Sequence record: MT446408.1
Reading direction: 5' to 3' (one strand)
DNA: 64,000 bases
Origin: Escherichia virus TH35
Shown: positions 41,901 through 56,230 of the stretch, one piece after another
Numbering within the stretch: position 1 is the stretch's first letter
Layout of the letters: every line of letters starts with the position of its first letter
Made by a program: the position numbers and the translations under genes
Notes under the pieces: generated by a model
The model's database searches: none
Seen by the model: the letters and a program-made list of their open reading frames with translations, nothing else
Told to the model about the DNA's origin: nothing

Positions 41901-44276
41901 TCAACCTTGCTTCGGTGAATTAGTAGGATTATTGAGTGCTCCGTATGCTTGAGAGCAATCACCCTTCAACCACTCCTTGAATGAGTTCACATCTAATTCG
42001 TGGATTGAGTCGAATCCGTTCCAACCGTTACCAAATGATGCTTGATAAGCTTCTTTCGCTTCTTCTGCTGAATCGAATCCAAGCATACACTTGTGTTCAT
42101 CAAACTCGCCAGAGTAGTTATCGTTTTGGTTCACGATAAAGACTTTCGGCGACTTCAGATTTGGACCCACAAAGCAGTCGACTTCATCACCGTCTGCGCC
42201 CTTGGTGCCCTTGATGAATCCGTAGTGGTGCGGCATCTTCACGGCCCATTCACCGTCAAGGCTGTTTCCTCTACGAATGCTGTTTCGCGGATTCTCAATG
42301 CCAAGAATCATTCCGTGCAACTTCATCTTAGGTAATGATGCTGCGTCCATTTTACCCACGTTGTGGCGTAAGTTGACGACGTGTCCTTTAACGCTTGGAA
42401 GGGTAGACGGTTGCACCGACCGTGAATCTTTTTGAGGGTCAAAATCCACATCCTGACCTTCTTTCAGGTAGTAATCCGCAATACCCTCCAGCCCTTCTTT
42501 CAACTGCGTTAGGACATCAACCTTATGGCTTGATTCATCATCGGTATCGTCCATGTTGATTTCGACAGGCGCTTTGTCAGGGTTTTCCGCCAACTCACCA
42601 CGCGCGGCACCCTCTGGCATAATACCTGTTTCGCTATAGAACTGGCCGCCCATCTTAACGACATCAGCTTTCGCCTGTTCAATATCGGCCTTACCTTGCA
42701 GGACTTCACCAGCAGACTTGCCAAGCAATGCCATATTCTCTGGAGACATCCCTGGGGTTTCTTCTGCCGCGTCTTCCGGCAGACGGTTGTAGCCGCTGTT
42801 TTTGTCGTCTTTGATGCGGTCGCGCTCTTCATCAGGAGAAATGACGCCAGCATCAATAAGAGTTTTGCCAGTGTTGGCTCGCTTATCATTGATTTCTGCA
42901 AGTTGAGTAGCAGTAAGTGAGCCAACTGGTTCCCATGCAACCTTAACATCGACATCCACCCCTTCTGATTTGAGAAGGATTTTGTAATGGCGGTCGAGAA
43001 TTTTTGTCAGGTCATGCTGCTGGCACGTTTCCAACTCTTCGTGATAGCTGACCATCTCGAATTCACCAGTGGCGTTAAAGCCTTTTGGCGAAGTCCCAAG
43101 CAGTTTGGTCGACGGAACTTTTGCGATTGCGGCCACAAGCTGGTACTGGTTCATGATGATGCTGTCGAAGTCTGACAAGTTGATGTCAAACTGGTCCATC
43201 TCTTCTTTTTGGCCAAGCACTTTGACTGCATAGTTGTCGCGGTACTTGATCCACATCATCAGACGTTCTGCAAAAGACCGCTCATTGGCAATAGCCTTGT
43301 CAACGTCGGTCCGCAGCGTCGTTGTACGCTTGGACATCGCCAGCAATGGCGCTTCGTTGGCGGTACGTTCAGCGGCATAGATGCGTTCATAAATCTGCTG
43401 AGTCAGAGGAATGCCGCCGTAAATATAAGTCGGCTTGAGAATATCAGCTGGCTCATCGTTGCGCAAGATTATGAGGTGGCTGCGATGATAACGTTGTCCG
43501 CTGATTACCCAATATTCTGGGTCATAGAAGTGCTGTGATGCAGGGTCTGCTGTGTTTTCAGACGTCAGAAACGGCATCATCCAATAAGGGTCAACCTGAA
43601 TGATTCCCTTATAAGACCCCTTTGTCACACCATCAATGTTAAAAGGCTTGCTGTAATATTCTGGGTCATCGCTACGCACATCAAATATGATGACGCGGAT
43701 ACCAAAAATATTTTTGAATCGTTCGGCTTCAACTAAGTGCTCTTTGATATTAAATTCTTTATCAATTTGCTTTAGGCGTTCGCTTGCCTGTACTGACAAT
43801 TCTGACTCAGAACTGGATTTGACTTCCCAGCCTTTACGGACTGCATCGCGGCCTACCATGGAACACGCTTTGTTCACCAGCCAGTGCTGCGCGATGATTG
43901 CGCAAGCTTGATAGCCGATGAATGACTGTGACAAATACCAGTTTTGAAGTTGAATAGGTACTGTGTATGGGTTGACCTGCCCTTCTGAACTGATGTTCTT
44001 CAAGGCATTATCCATAACTTTTTTGGATACTGTTGCGGAATCGACTGAACGACCTTTTATGATAGCAACACCGTCGCCATTAATATCAGGCTCATACAAA
44101 GGGAAGTCATCAACCGTTTTAAAGGTAGGTCGATTGCTTTCAGTCTTTTCCCAGCGTTGACCGCTGCCGCGCCTTTCAAGGCGTTCAAACGGTGCCAATG
44201 GGTCGCCTGGCGGCATCTCCGCTGGTTCGGCTTCTGGTTGCGTCTTCTCCCAGAGTTTTATGCCAAGAATTTTCAT
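41901..44276 (-). CDS. portal protein with C-terminal inorganic-pyrophosphatase-like domain
   Basis: 791 aa from ATG 44276 (AGGTGG RBS; track start 44309 is TTG); position between terminase and Mu F; C-terminal HHYGFIKGTKGADGDEVDCFV and DEHKCMLGF match family I PPase motifs. Confidence 0.6.
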   Translation of the reverse strand: MKILGIKLWEKTQPEAEPAEMPPGDPLAPFERLERRGSGQRWEKTESNRPTFKTVDDFPLYEPDINGDGVAIIKGRSVDSATVSKKVMDNALKNISSEGQVNPYTVPIQLQNWYLSQSFIGYQACAIIAQHWLVNKACSMVGRDAVRKGWEVKSSSESELSVQASERLKQIDKEFNIKEHLVEAERFKNIFGIRVIIFDVRSDDPEYYSKPFNIDGVTKGSYKGIIQVDPYWMMPFLTSENTADPASQHFYDPEYWVISGQRYHRSHLIILRNDEPADILKPTYIYGGIPLTQQIYERIYAAERTANEAPLLAMSKRTTTLRTDVDKAIANERSFAERLMMWIKYRDNYAVKVLGQKEEMDQFDINLSDFDSIIMNQYQLVAAIAKVPSTKLLGTSPKGFNATGEFEMVSYHEELETCQQHDLTKILDRHYKILLKSEGVDVDVKVAWEPVGSLTATQLAEINDKRANTGKTLIDAGVISPDEERDRIKDDKNSGYNRLPEDAAEETPGMSPENMALLGKSAGEVLQGKADIEQAKADVVKMGGQFYSETGIMPEGAARGELAENPDKAPVEINMDDTDDESSHKVDVLTQLKEGLEGIADYYLKEGQDVDFDPQKDSRSVQPSTLPSVKGHVVNLRHNVGKMDAASLPKMKLHGMILGIENPRNSIRRGNSLDGEWAVKMPHHYGFIKGTKGADGDEVDCFVGPNLKSPKVFIVNQNDNYSGEFDEHKCMLGFDSAEEAKEAYQASFGNGWNGFDSIHELDVNSFKEWLKGDCSQAYGALNNPTNSPKQG

Positions 44277-44438
44277 TGTTAACGCCACCTGACAGTGAAA
44301 GGGAATCAATCTATATTATAAATATTCATGTGTTTGTAAGCAAATGATATGTATGGTGATCATAAATAGTTCATAAAATATTTTGCTTTTGTATCATTTT
44401 GAGTTATATTTTAGTTAACCAAACGAAAGGAGATTGAA

Positions 44439-44855
44439 ATGAGCACAACAATTGTATTTGTCGTCTTGAATAAAGGCGAAGTCGTTAACGTATGTGAATA
44501 TGAAGAACTGGCAAAGGCCACTGCTGCGCGATACGAAGGTGCTATTATTGACCCGTGGATTTTAGATGCGCGCAACGTCTTGCAGGCGACTTTGGATGAG
44601 TGGTTGTTGGGCCGCAAGGTCTATCCAGTAGACAACATCGACTCAATTCAAGGTGAAACAGTATACTTTGAAGATGAATGCGTTCGCGGAATCGGCAAAT
44701 TTATGGGATTGTGCCCATCTTCATCCAAAAATAAATTCTATCGTATTCAAGTTGAAGAAAACGATATGTTTGATAAAGTCACGCGCTCGATTGTTCCTGG
44801 CGGCGGAACTCCAATCTTTATGGCAGAATCAGACATCAAGGGGATTATCAAATGA
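44439..44855 (+). CDS. hypothetical protein (138 aa), opposite-strand cassette
   Basis: AAAGGAG RBS; own promoter-like TTGCTT-16-TATATT upstream; no motif recognised. Confidence 0.5.
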   Translation: MSTTIVFVVLNKGEVVNVCEYEELAKATAARYEGAIIDPWILDARNVLQATLDEWLLGRKVYPVDNIDSIQGETVYFEDECVRGIGKFMGLCPSSSKNKFYRIQVEENDMFDKVTRSIVPGGGTPIFMAESDIKGIIK

Positions 44856-45091
44856 GAACTTTAACCGAACTCGATGTTTTGAAAGACGTTGCAGCCGCGC
44901 TGGGCGTTGAAGTCTCTGAAAAGTCGACACTGGGTGCTCTGCGTCGTGATTTACTCGAAGCCGTCGACCGCAACGATTTTGATCGTAAGTGTTTGCAAAA
45001 GAAGATTCGACAGGCAGTAAGGGCGGGTAAGCGATTCCGTGCCAGGTCGTTTGCCGCAAGAAAACTCGACCTTCAGCACGGAATGCTTTAA
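44852..45091 (+). CDS. hypothetical basic protein (79 aa)
   Basis: ATGA-coupled to 44439-44855; ends 3 nt before convergent terminase stop. Confidence 0.45.
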   Translation: MRTLTELDVLKDVAAALGVEVSEKSTLGALRRDLLEAVDRNDFDRKCLQKKIRQAVRAGKRFRARSFAARKLDLQHGML

Positions 45092-45094
45092 TTG

Positions 45095-46555
45095 TTAAAG
45101 GTTAGAGAAGAAGCCGGATGCTGCAACAATTGGTTTCATCAACGCCATGATTGCTGCGTCCGCTTTGTTAGGCGATTTGACTCCACGCTTTGCCATATCC
45201 TTTTTCGATTCAACTTTAAACTTACCAAGCACAGACGTGTCTTTGCGCGGCGCTGACATCTCAAAAAGAAATGTCTCAATTTCTTCCGCAGACCAAGCAG
45301 GAATCCCAAGTTCTGGAATGCCGTCTGTGTCGATGGAAATCAGCTCATCAGTCGGGTATACAGCCTGCCCTGTTGCATACTCATATGTCTTCCTGAATCG
45401 TTCGGCAATCTCAGTCCATTTTTGCGCTTTTATGTTTGCGAAATGGTCTTTATTGAGTATTTCAACGTGTGGTAACTCAAGGAAGACGTCATCAGGATCA
45501 TCAACAGCACCTTGCGCGTTGAACGCATTAAATTCGATTCTTGGGAATGTTGGATTTTCATGGATTGCATACTCATTAAGCTCATCAAATTTTGAACCAG
45601 CAAATGCACCAACACCGATGGCGTCATAGGTAATTGATGCGCCGAATGTTAATGCATCTTTCCAAACTCCGCTTGCGGACTTAAGCAATTCATCTTCCAG
45701 ACCTTCCCATGTCTTGATGCCGCGCAATACGTTGCCCGTGACAAATGCTGTGGCGTTTAAGTCGTCGCCGTCGTCTGCCACGTCAAAGCCTATACGGTTA
45801 GACCCTGACAAGCTCCATCCCAACGTAGGGTGTTTGTGGAGGTTTAGCGCGGCCTTGACGAATGCACGGTTGATGACCGACTTGTCGCCGCCTGTCTTCG
45901 GTACTCCGCCATAAACGTGTTCTGCCTTTTTCGGGTCGCGCTCATACATGCCAGCGATAACGTCCAGCATTGTTTGCGACAAGAATGGATTGTCCTGCCA
46001 GTTAATCTTCTTAACAATGGCATTTTTAGGCGGTCGCATAACAAAGTTCTGGTAGACGAAATCAGCCTCTTCATCAGGGTTAAATATGATCCATATTTCG
46101 GACCCTTCCTTACGAATTGTCGGCTCAATAATATCCCACTGCTCTTCAGTCAGCGCGTGCGCTTCTTCAAGCCAAAGAACGTCAACACCTTCTGTTGATT
46201 TGATTTCGTCAACGTTGCGTGCGATACCGTAAAATAAGAATTCAGATTTTGTTCTTTTGTGTTCAATGGAGTTCTTTAATAAGTTGAACTCATCTTTGAA
46301 ATCAGAAATTTCTATTTTGTCTTTTAATAGCGTATATACTGATTCAGAAATCTTGTTCTGGAATTGTCGAACGCAAAGGAATTTTAATTTAAAATTTGCC
46401 GCCAAATAAATAGCAAAACCAGCGGCATCATGCGATTTGGAAGATGCACGACCGCCGTATATAACTTTGTATCGCGCTTTCGTCTTCCAGACTTCTCTTA
46501 AAGCAGGATTCAACTGGTACATGACTTTCCAATTATGTGTTAATATTTTATTCAT
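45095..46555 (-). CDS. terL: terminase large subunit
   Basis: N-terminal ATPase with P-loop-like YGGRASSKS and Walker B VLWLEEAH; C-terminal nuclease-like domain; 486 aa. Confidence 0.8.
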   Translation of the reverse strand: MNKILTHNWKVMYQLNPALREVWKTKARYKVIYGGRASSKSHDAAGFAIYLAANFKLKFLCVRQFQNKISESVYTLLKDKIEISDFKDEFNLLKNSIEHKRTKSEFLFYGIARNVDEIKSTEGVDVLWLEEAHALTEEQWDIIEPTIRKEGSEIWIIFNPDEEADFVYQNFVMRPPKNAIVKKINWQDNPFLSQTMLDVIAGMYERDPKKAEHVYGGVPKTGGDKSVINRAFVKAALNLHKHPTLGWSLSGSNRIGFDVADDGDDLNATAFVTGNVLRGIKTWEGLEDELLKSASGVWKDALTFGASITYDAIGVGAFAGSKFDELNEYAIHENPTFPRIEFNAFNAQGAVDDPDDVFLELPHVEILNKDHFANIKAQKWTEIAERFRKTYEYATGQAVYPTDELISIDTDGIPELGIPAWSAEEIETFLFEMSAPRKDTSVLGKFKVESKKDMAKRGVKSPNKADAAIMALMKPIVAASGFFSNL

Positions 46556-46674
46556 ATTATAGTTTGCTTGCGACAGCTATATCAAGTAAAATTATGATTC
46601 CAGCTTAGTAGTGGATAAAGGATGATCTTTTCGGCCAGATTCTTTCTGGCCATTTTTTTTATCAGGAGTAAATC

Positions 46675-52325: not shown

Positions 52326-52414
52326 CATCAAGTACCAAAACGCACCAAAAGACCCATGCCCTAAAAACCACACGAACGCAATAATCAATCGCCGTTACAG
52401 TTTCCAGCGTTACA

Positions 52415-52674
52415 ATTCGAAAGCGAATGATTCGATACACAATAATATGAAGCATAATGATTCGAAAGCGAATGATTGCGTGTAGTATAATATCGGTGGG
52501 GATTATTCTAGATGCATGTAATTTCGCATGCGTACTATTTTCGGACGAAGGGTCGGCATATTCCTCGTTTTAGTTCGGAACGAAGGGAAAGTTTTGCGCC
52601 TTTATAAAACAACGACTTACGCAACCCGCCCTAACGGTCCGATATAGGTGTCTATATAAAACAAGGACTTACGC
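52415..52674. repeat. short direct repeats in a non-coding stretch
   Basis: ATTCGAAAGCGAATGATT at 52415-52432 and 52460-52477; TATAAAACAA[C/G]GACTTACGC at 52603-52622 and 52655-52674; recurring CGAAGGG words. Confidence 0.5.
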
Positions 52675-52840
52675 GATGTTCTCCATTTAACGTAATACCC
52701 GTTATGCGAACTAAGGAGCATCTCGAAGAAGATTATGAGGCGACGAAGGGAAGGATAAAGGAGTTTTCGCGGAGAAGCGCATCGAGATAGGGACGAAGAA
52801 AAGCCGCGACTAAGCGCGGCCTATTAGTAACGGAAGGATA

Positions 52841-53131
52841 TTATAAGGAGACAATTTTAAAATAAGTTACTTCGCCGCCGAGTTGCGGTACAGCGATATA
52901 TTCGCCGCCGATTTCGGTAATCGTATAAACGAAGCCGTTAATCGTTACGCGATAGGATACGATGTCCTCGTCGCGATACTTGTAAAGGTCGAGGAAGTTG
53001 ATCGGCTCATAAATAGACTCGATAATCGCGTCGACGTTAGAGAGATAAACGCTCTCTAAGGTTTCGCCAAATACGTTAGAGTTTTCGGAAGTTTCGACGC
53101 GAGCGGAACGGATAGCGGCTAAAGTAATCAT
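52841..53131 (-). CDS. small protein, paralog family member A (96 aa)
   Basis: MITLAAIRS... similar in N-terminus and overall pattern to 53767-54051 and 53239-53541; AGGAG RBS. Confidence 0.5.
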   Translation of the reverse strand: MITLAAIRSARVETSENSNVFGETLESVYLSNVDAIIESIYEPINFLDLYKYRDEDIVSYRVTINGFVYTITEIGGEYIAVPQLGGEVTYFKIVSL

Positions 53132-53155
53132 AATAATCTCCTAGTTGGTCGGGCG

Positions 53156-53176
53156 GGTAGCGACCTATTCGCTACC
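53156..53176 (-). promoter_or_regulatory. conserved 5' UTR stem-loop (copy 1)
   Basis: on coding strand GGTAGCG-AATAGGT-CGCTACC preceded by GGGATGAG; same loop and architecture as copy at 53721-53741 with compensatory stem changes. Confidence 0.5.
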
Positions 53177-53198
53177 TCATCCCCTCTCGATATAAAAC

Positions 53199-53227
53199 AT
53201 TATAGTATTAGTGTACGAAGAAGTAAA
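53199..53227 (-). promoter_or_regulatory. sigma70-like promoter for 52841-53131
   Basis: reverse strand TTTACT (53227-53222) - 17 bp - TATAAT (53204-53199). Confidence 0.55.
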
Positions 53228-53238
53228 GCACTTTTTCG

Positions 53239-53541
53239 TTATTTTGCGATAAAATGTTTATAAGCTTTATCGCCTTCTACGTCGATATACTCGACGATAA
53301 TTAACGCTTCGTCGCGAGGCGTAACCGTCTCGATAAGGGTAACGGCTTCGTCGTCGGTCTTCGCGAAGCGGATGGCGCTACGTTCGGCGTATTTCATATC
53401 GTCGAAGGAAAGGCCGACGAAGGCGAACGCGCGGACCTTAATAGCGGTCCCGTCTAGTTCCGCGTTAACGGCTTTAAGAAGAGAAGCGACGGTTAAGCGG
53501 TCTTCGTCGTAAGTAAGGATAGAAGAGATTAAAGTGGTCAT
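53239..53541 (-). CDS. small protein, paralog family member B (100 aa)
   Basis: start set at ATG 53541 after GGGAG RBS (track start 53598 is TTG and overlaps the promoter); MTTLISSILTYDED... Confidence 0.45.
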   Translation of the reverse strand: MTTLISSILTYDEDRLTVASLLKAVNAELDGTAIKVRAFAFVGLSFDDMKYAERSAIRFAKTDDEAVTLIETVTPRDEALIIVEYIDVEGDKAYKHFIAK

Positions 53542-53597
53542 AATAAAACTCCCGATGCTAGTAGAAGGAAGGGCCATCGCCCGTCTCGATATAAACA

Positions 53598-53625
53598 AGT
53601 ATACGCGAGTGTACGAAGAAGTAAA
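53598..53625 (-). promoter_or_regulatory. sigma70-like promoter for 53239-53541
   Basis: reverse strand TTTACT (53625-53620) - 16 bp - TATACT (53603-53598); near-identical to promoter at 53199-53227. Confidence 0.5.
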
Positions 53626-53679
53626 GAAAAAAGATAAAATAATTTATCTCATTTTTATCGAAAAAGTGCTTTACTTTTT

Positions 53680-53707
53680 TCTACACTATATTATAATGTA
53701 CTCATAT
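53680..53707 (+). promoter_or_regulatory. sigma70-like promoter for 53767-54051
   Basis: TTTACT (53680-53685) - 16 bp - TATAAT (53702-53707); shares CTTTACTT...TACAC core with the two reverse promoters. Confidence 0.55.
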
Positions 53708-53710
53708 CGG

Positions 53711-53748
53711 GACGGGATGAGTTAACGAATAGGTCGTTAACGCCCGTC
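53711..53748 (+). promoter_or_regulatory. conserved 5' UTR stem-loop (copy 2)
   Basis: GACGGGATGAG-GTTAACG-AATAGGT-CGTTAAC-GCCCGTC immediately upstream of AGGAG RBS. Confidence 0.5.
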
Positions 53749-53766
53749 GAGAACTAGGAGTTTAAA

Positions 53767-54051
53767 ATGGCTATTCTTAACGTTTCTTCCATCCGTAACG
53801 CTATCGTCGAGAACTACGGCGTAAAACAAATTTTATCCGAAGTCTACGCCGCGAACGTAGACCAAACTATCGAGGCAGGTGGGGTAACGGTCGCCGAGGC
53901 TTTTAAACTTTACGCGGCGCTACCGGAATCGGACCGCGAAGCCTTCGAAGTAAACGTTAACGGATACTTCTTCGAAGCGGTCGAAATCGGTAACACCTTA
54001 CTCGTTATGGGCGAAGAAGAATTTGAGACCTTCTCCCTCGTCGAAGCGTAA
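53767..54051 (+). CDS. small protein, paralog family member C (94 aa)
   Basis: MAILNVSSIRNAIVE...; paralogous to 52841-53131 (shared NVD..IE, VNG.F, EIG, E.E.TF positions). Confidence 0.5.
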   Translation: MAILNVSSIRNAIVENYGVKQILSEVYAANVDQTIEAGGVTVAEAFKLYAALPESDREAFEVNVNGYFFEAVEIGNTLLVMGEEEFETFSLVEA

Positions 54052-54131
54052 GAGAGGATTTTTAGAGCGTCGTGCGCGACGCTTTAATAAAATTCTTTCG
54101 CGCCTAGCGCCCTAACAAATAGGAGTTTATT

Positions 54132-54758
54132 ATGGTTAGCTTAAATCGTTTCTCGACTAGCGGCGACGTTATCGCAACTAAGACCGCCGACCTCGTTGCA
54201 TTTTATAATGCAAATTCCGGTTCGAAGCCGATTAAGAAATTTTCGGACCGCCGGACCGCCGAGGCTCGCGTAATAGCGTTAATCGAGTCCTTAAACGCGC
54301 TCGATGAGCCGTCCAACGAATCGCCCATCCCAGACGCGAAGTCGCGCGAGGAAGTGCCCAGCGATGTAAAAACGCATAAGGCGCGTGCGGTCGTTAAAAA
54401 GTCCGAGCCGACCCAGGAAGAACTCGACGCGATGACCGACGAAGAGTATGAAGCCTTCGTTAAGAGCGGTTTAAACGATAGTGCAAATTGCGTAGTGCAA
54501 AATGGAACTCCTTCCCATCGCCGTTCAAATAGCGAAGGTATTGCGAAAAGTTGGGATAACAAGGAAGTGGCGCAAAAGCGTCTCACGCGTAACGGCGTTA
54601 TGGTCGAGGGTGTAGGCGAGTTCAAATCGGTCCGCGTAGCGTTTGCTGCGCTGGGCTTACCGGATAGCAAGCACATTCGCTTCCGCATGAAGCTTAAAGA
54701 AGCTGGACGATTGAACTTTGAGTTCGGCAACAAGTCCTACACCTTCCAGATCATCTAA
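54132..54758 (+). CDS. hypothetical protein (208 aa)
   Basis: ORF with AGGAG RBS; hairpin at 54064-54081 upstream; contains first ATAGTGCAAAT copies. Confidence 0.5.
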   Translation: MVSLNRFSTSGDVIATKTADLVAFYNANSGSKPIKKFSDRRTAEARVIALIESLNALDEPSNESPIPDAKSREEVPSDVKTHKARAVVKKSEPTQEELDAMTDEEYEAFVKSGLNDSANCVVQNGTPSHRRSNSEGIAKSWDNKEVAQKRLTRNGVMVEGVGEFKSVRVAFAALGLPDSKHIRFRMKLKEAGRLNFEFGNKSYTFQII

Positions 54759-54808
54759 TCGAATGGCGGCCCTTCGGGGTCGCTTTTCATAGTGCAAATT
54801 GGTGGCTT

Positions 54809-55072
54809 ATGAATACGCTTATTCTTATCGCTACGTTGTCCATCGGAAGTGGTCGCACCTTATCCCTTTATGATCATAGTGCAAATTGCGCTTACCCAAC
54901 GCGCGTTGCGGTGATAGTTAATAGTGCAAATCGAATGCTATTCGAGACTTGTTGGCGGGTCGATAACGAGAAAGGTCGGGTAGTCTTAGGTTATAGTGCA
55001 AATCTGCTGGTGGAGTCGTTCGATTGGACGGTTGAAGGCCGTAAATTGTTACGGAAAGTGACTAAAAGATGA
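54809..55072 (+). CDS. doubtful ORF spanning three in-phase repeat copies
   Basis: 87-aa ORF whose HSANCA, NSANRM and YSANLL segments are each encoded by an ATAGTGCAAAT copy; may be non-coding. Confidence 0.3.
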   Translation: MNTLILIATLSIGSGRTLSLYDHSANCAYPTRVAVIVNSANRMLFETCWRVDNEKGRVVLGYSANLLVESFDWTVEGRKLLRKVTKR

Positions 55073-55133
55073 CTTATAATAATACACTTTCTAACGCGTT
55101 TATGGTTGTAACCTTCCCCGTCGTATTACCGAT

Positions 55134-55173
55134 GGCCCTAGAAGTGGAGAAAATGTGTTCTAGGGCCGTTTTA
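55134..55173 (+). terminator. rho-independent terminator for the forward unit
   Basis: GGCCCTAGA (55134-55142) / TCTAGGGCC (55159-55167) 9-bp stem followed by GTTTTA. Confidence 0.5.
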
Positions 55174-55186
55174 TAGTGCAAATTGG

Positions 55187-55675
55187 CTAGTGGCGGGAGA
55201 ATTGCTCACCTTCTTTGGCCGCCTCTCCAAAATCCTTGTAGAAATCGTCCATAGAACGGCCCATTTTACTATTGCCGTTTTCATCAATCATCGTGATGCC
55301 GTAGATGATATTCAGTTCACGAATAGCATTAAGCTTGGCTGATGCCGCGACTTCTGGATCACGCACAAGCTTGACCAAATTGTGAATTGCACCTTTTACG
55401 CTCCACAAATCCTTTAGCGGCATTTCTTCCATACGCTTTTTGAAGCGCATTTTGTAGTACGGATTGCGTTGTGCGCAAAGGATTCGCTGGCCAGTGTAGT
55501 TATCCGTTGCAACTTCCATTCCAAATACTAGTGCAAAAGCTGCGCGCATGTCATGGCCCTGAATAACAAGGTCAATGAACTCATCGAATAAGGCCTGATT
55601 GTGCTCTGCAAATCGCGGGTCTTCAAAGTCTTCAGGCATCGCTACATAGTCTTGACTCATAGTGCAAAATCCCAT
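55187..55675 (-). CDS. hypothetical protein (162 aa)
   Basis: ORF; start codon region itself formed by two ATAGTGCAAA copies (reverse strand ATGGGATTTTGCACTATG). Confidence 0.5.
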   Translation of the reverse strand: MGFCTMSQDYVAMPEDFEDPRFAEHNQALFDEFIDLVIQGHDMRAAFALVFGMEVATDNYTGQRILCAQRNPYYKMRFKKRMEEMPLKDLWSVKGAIHNLVKLVRDPEVAASAKLNAIRELNIIYGITMIDENGNSKMGRSMDDFYKDFGEAAKEGEQFSRH

Positions 55676-55889
55676 AGTGCAAATTAATAGTGTGAATTAT
55701 ACAATGGATGAACATTATATTCAAGTGCAGATTGATGTTCATTATGGCTATAAACGTACACAAATCATATTGCGGAATGAATAGCGGACCGTGGTGCGTG
55801 GTGTACTGTTTGATACGTATAAAAGAAATCCATCCCTTTCGCCGCTTGTTATGCAAATCAATGACTTAGCCGCTGCTGGCTGGTTTAAG

Positions 55890-56230
55890 CGTATCATGAC
55901 GTATCATCCGTATTGCCGCAAGTCTTTGTTTTTACTTATATCTTACGGATAATACGTATAAATATAAGTTTAGTATAAGTATGAGGATATGAAAAAAATT
56001 AATTTAAATGTTTTTAAAATGGAGTTTATTTATTTTTGGAGTTTTATATATAACGATGCCCAGTTTTATCCGTATCATCCGTAAGATTAATGTACAAGCC
56101 AGGCGCGGCAAGGGCTGTACACTGATACGGATAAAAAAACATGACGTATCATGACGTAAGGGTGTACCACTTTGGAAAAGAGGAATCCAGGAACGGTGCG
56201 GCCTGCAGCCATGATACGCTTAAATTTTAG
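55890..56230. repeat. second iteron-like region, related to 39660-39930
   Basis: GTATCATGACGTATCATCCGTAT 55891-55913; AT-rich core 55960-56060; TTTTATCCGTATCATCCGTAAGATT 56064-56088 shares 21-mer ATCCGTATCATCCGTAAGATT with 39864-39890; GATACGGAT 56124-56132. Confidence 0.6.

Follow-up and report, generated by a model that had tools for sequence, protein, structure and literature searches.

A conserved opposite-strand gene pair between the large terminase and portal genes of Escherichia virus TH35, with a small terminase homologue encoded elsewhere in the genome

Two genes, here termed gpA and gpB, lie between the genes for the large terminase (TerL) and the portal protein of Escherichia virus TH35 (MT446408.1), on the strand opposite to both. 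The reading that we slightly favour is that they make up a small, conserved operon of non-structural genes under a promoter of its own, an operon that represents the reduced Wifcevirus form of an ancient opposite-strand block of the Pbunavirus–Kylevirus–Wifcevirus lineage. Neither is considered to be the small terminase (TerS), because the true TerS gene is found at 55187–55675 of the window, the 64,000-nucleotide stretch of DNA that was analysed.

The 2.6-kb stretch around the gene pair shares 99.8% identity with Escherichia phage ECP_WGS_SA1 and 91–99% with 27 other Wifcevirus records, which places the phage among the Wifcevirus myophages. The records compared include ECML-117, WFH, WFC, FEC19, Mansfield, vB_Eco4M-7 and the BASEL phages Bas98–101; Pantoea phage Kyle gave the only DNA-level match of this stretch outside the genus. 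Wifceviruses are myoviruses of E. coli and Shigella with genomes of 66–72 kb. Their relationship to the Pseudomonas Pbunaviruses is a distant one (PMC11990801). An Rfam scan of the whole window returned no RNA family.

The coordinates and ribosome-binding sites given for the two genes in the initial annotation were read again from the sequence and are correct (Table 1). A Shine–Dalgarno sequence, AAGGAG (44427–44432), precedes the gpA start by 6 nt, and another, AAGGGG (44838–44843), precedes the gpB start by 8 nt. The two reading frames overlap by 4 nt (ATGA), the gpB start codon lying on the gpA stop codon, an arrangement that suggests translational coupling. The gpB stop codon (45089–45091) lies 3 nt from the convergent TerL stop codon (45095–45097), as had been noted; the junction contains no terminator-like hairpin and no significant RNA structure (fold z-score 0.47). 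The Mansfield annotation, mapped onto the window, places the portal start at 44276 and the TerL start at 46522. The ATG at 46522 is the likely true start of TerL, and a promoter, TTGATA-18-TATAAT (46585–46556; scan score 11/12), lies upstream of it.

Table 1. Features of the gene pair, its flanks and the small terminase region (window coordinates)
Feature	Position	Strand	Details
Portal protein	41901–44276 or 44309	−	Phage_portal_3 (Pfam E 3e-88); C-terminal InPase-like domain; divergent from gpA
Intergenic region	44277–44438	.	Back-to-back divergent sigma-70-like promoters
Portal promoter (predicted activity)	−35 44338–44343; −10 44315–44320	−	TTGCTT, 17 nt, TATAAT (both as reverse complement)
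Conserved box	44346–44354		GATATGTAT; between the two divergent promoters
gpA/gpB promoter (predicted activity)	−35 44383–44388; −10 44405–44410	+	TTGCTT, 16-nt spacer, TATATT
gpA	44439–44855	+	138 aa
gpB	44852–45091	+	79 aa
Large terminase TerL	45095–46522 or 46555	−	Terminase_3 (Pfam E 3e-37)
Terminal-repeat equivalent	~52348–56020	.	blastn of Mansfield repeat, 94.8% identity, one copy; predicted by homology; contains TerS
Small terminase TerS	55187–55675	−	157 aa from ATG 55660 or 162 aa from 55675

The promoter activity of the intergenic region is inferred from its sequence. The promoter-like element previously described ahead of gpA is present, although it matches the sigma-70 consensus at only 8 of 12 positions and falls under the scan threshold. 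An alignment of eight intergenic sequences, five taken from Wifceviruses, two from metagenomic relatives and one from Kyle, showed that the −35 and −10 boxes of both divergent promoters, and the GATATGTAT box between them, are conserved across four lineages, which is better evidence for the gpA/gpB promoter than its consensus score. The GATATGTAT box is not enriched in the rest of the window; it was rejected as a recurring phage-specific motif, with 13 matches window-wide against 12.7 expected.

The pair was found in all 28 Wifcevirus records, at 93.5–99.3% identity for gpA and 96–100% for gpB (93.5–100% over the whole range). Pairwise dN/dS values across six Wifceviruses are 0.02–0.10 for gpA and 0–0.18 for gpB, with dS reaching 0.5, and homologues in other genera extend down to approximately 25% identity. 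Both are taken as real genes because of these low dN/dS values together with the homologues in other genera. The GC content over the pair (0.43–0.49) is the same as that of the flanks. Neither protein has a transmembrane segment or signal sequence, and PADLOC gave no meaningful defence-related hit for either. The pair is ordinary in kind, consisting of conserved hypothetical genes that 28 public records already contain.

gpA is acidic (pI 4.7) and is a member of PHROG 5124 (match E 1.8e-4), where the annotation is unknown function; the PHROG 5124 HMM matches 12 of the 12 aligned members of the gpA family, with a best E value of 2.9e-88. Profile searches with gpA bring back the Kyle and Pbunavirus members, and its orthologues comprise Pbunavirus ORF16 (LBL3 gp14, 14-1 gp17 and E217 gp18), Kyle gp28 and vB_Eco4M-7 gp35; one relative with a frameshifted C terminus (P0008) was left out of the alignments. 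The AF2 models of gpA and gpB are both confident. The predicted gpA model is mostly β-strand, and consists of an N-terminal β-β-α-β domain and a C-terminal SH3/Tudor/Sm-like β-barrel, connected by a flexible linker. Nearly all of its invariant residues are hydrophobic or glycine, and they contain no catalytic motif. A profile search of PDB sequences with gpA returned noise only.

Several candidate assignments were discarded. A CarD/TRCF RNA polymerase-interacting Tudor-like domain (PF02559) at the C terminus of gpA was rejected at an hhalign probability of 1.3% and a sub-threshold Pfam score. The PADLOC REase_II match of gpA (E 0.015) is weak and was taken as chance, as were all the other sub-threshold hits obtained with both proteins and their family alignments in Pfam, PHROG, NCBIfam and PADLOC (CarD_TRCF_RID, WGR, Ubiquitin_TPR1 and JIP_LZII).

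gpB is basic (pI 10.3), its C-terminal half more so (pI 11.6). The AF2 model (pLDDT 88) is composed of a short helix (residues 6–17), a loop (residues 18–26) and one long helix (residues 27–77). No significant match to gpB was obtained in the PDB or Pfam, by fold or by profile, and all Foldseek hits had E values of at least 2. A word-indexed homologue search returned near-identical proteins only; an exhaustive profile search placed the family in only 5 clusters among 1.84 billion representatives. The gpB family is restricted to Wifcevirus and the Kyle-like phages. The N-terminal pattern LxxLxxhAxxLGh...LxxxL, together with its modelled helices, may recall a helix-extended loop-helix (HeH) motif, as a resemblance only: gpB had no hit to SAP, HeH or Rho_N in Pfam at E values up to 0.5, and the LEM/SAP-like domains among its Foldseek matches stand at non-significant E values of at least 6. 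The only match of gpB in Pbunavirus, a weak one to LBL3 ORF11 at 18% identity (E 0.003, from a search of a tiny database), was judged spurious.

The slot between the TerL and portal genes differs in content among relatives. That of Kyle holds five opposite-strand genes, of which the first (K28, 143 aa) is the gpA homologue and the third (K26, 76 aa) the gpB homologue; between them lies a Trypsin_2 protease whose signal sequence, MKKAIALLSLALAGCS, is of the lipoprotein type, and K26 is followed by a 101-aa ORF and then a DUF2786/DUF7168 protein. Two metagenomic contigs (L007 and L012) show the order portal, gpA-like, Trypsin_2, gpB-like, (an ORF of approximately 100 aa), DUF2786/DUF7168 and TerL, and a short contig (L011) carries Trypsin_2 followed by a gpB-like gene. 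In the Kyle-like phages, gpB always follows a trypsin-like protease gene, which Wifcevirus lacks. The Kyle-like cassette retains gpA (24–58% identity) and gpB (31–66%) in the same order and slot as in Wifcevirus, whereas the protease, the 100-aa ORF and the DUF2786/DUF7168 gene have been lost from Wifcevirus, and gpB therefore overlaps gpA rather than the protease gene.

In the Pbunaviruses LBL3 and 14-1 the slot contains approximately 13 opposite-strand genes, the first of which, ORF16, is divergent from the portal gene and is the gpA homologue. Over their full length, gpA and LBL3 ORF16 share 26% identity, and gpA is like the ORF16 proteins in length (approximately 133–143 aa), position and orientation, although strongly diverged; gpB follows gpA directly in Wifcevirus, whereas some 12 further genes follow ORF16 in Pbunavirus. 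No gpB homologue was found in these Pbunaviruses. The DUF2786 protein is common to the Pbunavirus and Kyle slots. The gene count of the slot is therefore approximately 13 in Pbunavirus, 4–5 in Kyle-like phages and 2 in Wifcevirus, and in Wifcevirus, Kylevirus and Pbunavirus alike gpA is the first gene that diverges from the portal. A comparison of the window ORFs with the whole LBL3 genome revealed a backbone of colinear genes for replication, structure and lysis, and gpA is the sole slot gene in this Wifcevirus–Pbunavirus backbone. Because gpA belongs to the backbone and the GC content is ordinary, the pair is read as the conserved residue of a shrunken old block, not as a recent insertion.

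The Pbunavirus slot belongs to the 'early genome region'; when 38 ORFans from there were screened, effects on the host were seen with 14-1 gp12, a transcription inhibitor, and with the YIP peptides of 31 aa, but with no others (De Smet et al., PMC8085984). YIP, the YfiN-interacting peptide, is 14-1 gp11 and LBL3 gp88 (PMC8085984); LBL3 gp88 corresponds to ORF11.1 in the slot. 14-1 gp12 binds the α-subunit of RNA polymerase and may redirect the polymerase to phage-specific promoters (Putzeys et al., PMC10914365). The PB1-like early region resembles the gene pair in its TerL–portal slot, opposite strand, promoter on the portal side and shared gpA orthologue. It differs in that homologues of gp12, YIP, the DUF2786/DUF7168 protein and the membrane proteins are absent from the window, where two genes are left; no homologue of 14-1 gp12 or YIP was found among the window ORFs.

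As a small operon of this kind, gpA and gpB would be transcribed by host RNA polymerase apart from the structural genes. By analogy with the early region of Pbunavirus, they are probably expressed at an early or middle stage; early expression does not follow from the promoter type, because sigma-70-like promoters also drive portal and TerL. The predicted folds resemble small binding proteins rather than enzymes or terminases, and both products may act by binding rather than catalysis. The basic 50-residue helix of gpB could bind nucleic acid, or else an acidic partner, possibly gpA. The likeliest role, at a guess, is that of a small factor, regulatory or associated with nucleic acid, in the service of the phage's own programme; this is preferred over a host-specific weapon because conservation of gpA extends over Pseudomonas, Pantoea and Escherichia phages. 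The conservation of gpA beside the portal gene fits a morphogenetic role equally well.

Such a role would make gpA, possibly together with gpB, a non-virion morphogenetic factor or a portal or prohead assembly factor, co-regulated with the portal through the shared divergent promoter region. Conservation of the divergent gpA–portal layout, and of the sequence between the two genes, extends from Pseudomonas to E. coli phages, and the backbone to which gpA belongs is otherwise made up of structural, replication and lysis genes. Against this, gpA is transcribed opposite to all head genes and bears no likeness to known scaffolds or chaperones in fold searches, and its orthologue gp18 is absent from the E217 virion model. 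Virion mass spectrometry easily misses small proteins; gpA is not in the Wifcevirus particle proteomes. The protein list from mass spectrometry of vB_Eco4M-7 particles does not contain gp34 (gpB) and gp35 (gpA), and the ECML-117 orthologues by gene order, PI34_gp32 and gp33, were likewise undetected in particles (PMC7048862). A C-terminal tag on gpA is, moreover, harmless: vB_Eco4M-7 carrying HiBiT on gp35 gave 336 plaques at reboot compared with 332 for the wild type, and this fully viable phage was one of 13 tagged phages in a luminescence assay (PMC11074155). We regard an assembly factor as fairly unlikely, yet as a serious competitor of the favoured reading. It is also unlikely that gpA is an unrecognised essential core factor, acting as a divergent-promoter switch or as a portal or packaging helper, with gpB as its nucleic-acid-binding partner in the enterobacterial members.

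The initial annotation counted the pair among insertions in packaging modules, which it described as frequent sites of accessory genes (superinfection exclusion, anti-defence, toxin-like); the corresponding proposal is a moron-like accessory insertion acquired into the packaging module. Part of this proposal stands: the genes have their own predicted promoter and opposite orientation, and the cargo of the slot varies across the lineage, including the lipoprotein-type Trypsin_2 protease, the DUF2786/DUF7168 protein, a methyltransferase and, in Pbunavirus members, the host-interference proteins gp12 and gp11/YIP. The proposal does not hold for gpA and gpB themselves, which persist as the remainder of the slot turns over. 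They are invariably present in the 28 Wifcevirus records, they are under strong purifying selection with ordinary composition, and they are syntenic in other genera. The mapped Pbunavirus anti-defence island, 14-1 gp80–88, is at a different locus from the slot (PMC13307970). Nothing in the analyses of the pair points to toxin, superinfection-exclusion or anti-defence activity, and its searches for defence genes, membrane or signal sequences and a terminator were negative as described above. An accessory insertion is accordingly judged improbable.

It is very improbable that gpA or gpB serves as the small terminase, or as a third terminase subunit or packaging-specificity subunit that the phage requires. 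The pair adjoins TerL, most Wifcevirus records have no annotated TerS, and gpB is small, helical and basic, so that DNA binding by it is plausible. These points led to the earlier statements that no small terminase is present and that one of the two genes might be the missing one; the first is true only for the DNA directly beside TerL, and the second is contradicted by the TerS homologue that the window encodes on the strand of TerL, approximately 8.6 kb upstream of it. When the protein of ORF 55187–55675 was compared with PDB sequences by phmmer, 7UXE alone was matched (E 6e-34, residues 6–151). LBL3 ORF76 is the orthologue of E217 TerS, which has been characterised by experiment. ORF76 matches 7UXE with an E value of 2e-121, and its tblastn search of the window gave a single strong match at 55220–55651 on the minus strand (41% identity over 144 aa, E 4e-36). 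The Mansfield orthologue, CPT_Mansfield_002, is already annotated as 'terminase small subunit', 361–834 bp from the left end, inside a direct terminal repeat of 3673 bp predicted by PhageTerm.

PDB 7UXE is the decamer structure of TerS from the Pbunavirus E217, whose TerS gene lies approximately 58 kb from TerL (PMC9611059, citing Lokareddy et al. 2022, J Mol Biol); the separation of the Pbunavirus TerL and TerS genes is repeated in the Banzai paper (PMC12390725). In LBL3 the TerS–TerL gap is approximately 5 kb across the record ends, and the arrangement on the circular map is the same as in the window. The window TerS is thus like that of E217 in sequence and in being non-adjacent to TerL, as in Pbunavirus; it sits outside the cassette, and gpA and gpB share nothing with E217 TerS.

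A TerS protomer has a helix-turn-helix at the N terminus, a helical oligomerisation core and, in some cases, a β-barrel stalk. Profile and structure searches of gpA and gpB for small-terminase folds found none: single sequences and family profiles gave no TerS match in Pfam, PHROGs, NCBIfam or PDB sequences, the predicted folds did not match the TerS protomer, and no TerS occurs among the Foldseek hits of gpB. gpA is instead mostly β-strand, the pair is on the strand opposite TerL, and Pbunavirus uses the same TerL/TerS pair yet has no gpB homologue. The probability that the two ORFs arose by chance, or through faulty annotation of a long intergenic spacer, is negligible: nothing but their small size and lack of database matches speaks for it, and against it stand dN/dS values well below 1 with many synonymous changes, Shine–Dalgarno sites, the apparent translational coupling, the diverged homologues in other genera, the confident AF2 models and the gp35-HiBiT phage.

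Phage therapy makes wide use of Pbunaviruses, and replication of Wifceviruses is reported to be very fast. gpA is a conserved ORFan across the lineage and a reasonable knock-out target, because only a handful of unexplained core genes are left in it. The importance of the present result is mainly one of annotation hygiene. The TerS protein of the window has no Pfam hit, and TerS was therefore missed by Pharokka-type annotations, such as that of Bas99, and in the initial annotation. Most Wifcevirus records label the gene 'hypothetical', and the genes between TerL and the portal should not be relabelled TerS; Wifcevirus genomes, those of Bas98–101 included, do have a TerS, encoded by a 157-aa gene near the left genome end.

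The gene for the small terminase (TerS) appears, by blastn mapping, to lie inside the window equivalent (~52348–56020) of the 3673-bp direct terminal repeat that PhageTerm predicts for Mansfield, another Wifcevirus phage, and two copies of the gene would then be present in packaged DNA. The left genome end would lie a few hundred bp from the TerS gene. On a circular map, TerS is located a few kb upstream of the large terminase gene (TerL), matching the Pbunavirus arrangement, in which the distance of 58 kb between TerS and TerL becomes the same synteny as in the window once the map is drawn as a circle. The ORF convergent with TerS, for which Pfam and NCBIfam returned no match, has a Pbunavirus counterpart in LBL3 ORF77 (54% identity over 78 aa). 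It is probably gp19 of the Wifcevirus phage vB_Eco4M-7 (208 aa, 23.0 kDa), matched to it by length only and not by sequence; gp19 has been seen in mass spectrometry of phage particles (PMC7048862).

Coordinates of features in the window and, where named, in related phages or contigs
Feature	Position	Strand	Remark
Portal protein with InPase-like domain	41901-44276	-	
GATATGTAT	44346-44354		between two divergent portal/gpA promoters
Predicted TerL promoter, TTGATA-18-TATAAT	46556-46585		near-consensus, 11/12
208-aa ORF	54132-54758	+	convergent with TerS
TerS gene	55187-55675	-	within ~52348-56020
Trypsin_2 protease, gp27 of Pantoea phage Kyle	L002 5376-5921		
Trypsin_2 protease, metagenomic contig	L007 6411-7019		
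Trypsin_2 protease, metagenomic contig	L012 5412-6011		

The predicted TerL promoter ends directly adjacent to the start of the longest TerL ORF (position 46555), which favours the shorter start at 46522 that Mansfield and Bas99 are annotated with. This promoter suggests that TerL is a monocistronic unit under its own control. At its other end, TerL converges on gpB, the second gene of the opposite-strand pair between portal and TerL, with 3 nt separating the two stops (45089–45097). In Kyle and L012 the last gene of the cassette overlaps the TerL stop. No terminator-like hairpin was found at the gpB–TerL junction, so transcripts from either side should run antisense into the opposite gene.

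The element GATATGTAT is invariant from Wifcevirus through Kyle in the intergenic alignment, and its recurrence elsewhere in the window is not above chance; it is possibly an operator for a regulator of the promoter pair. In the Kyle-like relatives, a Trypsin_2 protease gene sits between the homologues of gpA and gpB; Wifcevirus is without the protease. The Kyle protease carries a lipoprotein-type signal with an LAGC lipobox. For a phage to encode a protease that is secreted or periplasmic in the TerL–portal slot is unusual.

The InPase-like (inorganic pyrophosphatase-like) domain, PF18823, occupies the portal C terminus (residues ~660–782, E = 3e-46), and according to the PHROG matches this domain also occurs within giant virion proteins or DarB-like proteins. 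In the cryo-EM model of the Pbunavirus phage E217, the portal was built for residues 97–528 only, out of 765.

A metagenomic relative of gpA on a 17.9-kb Logan contig (P0008) is frameshifted after approximately residue 95, entering an alternative frame that is also seen at 44653–44910 in the window; either the contig is misassembled here or the C-terminal barrel has been knocked out naturally.
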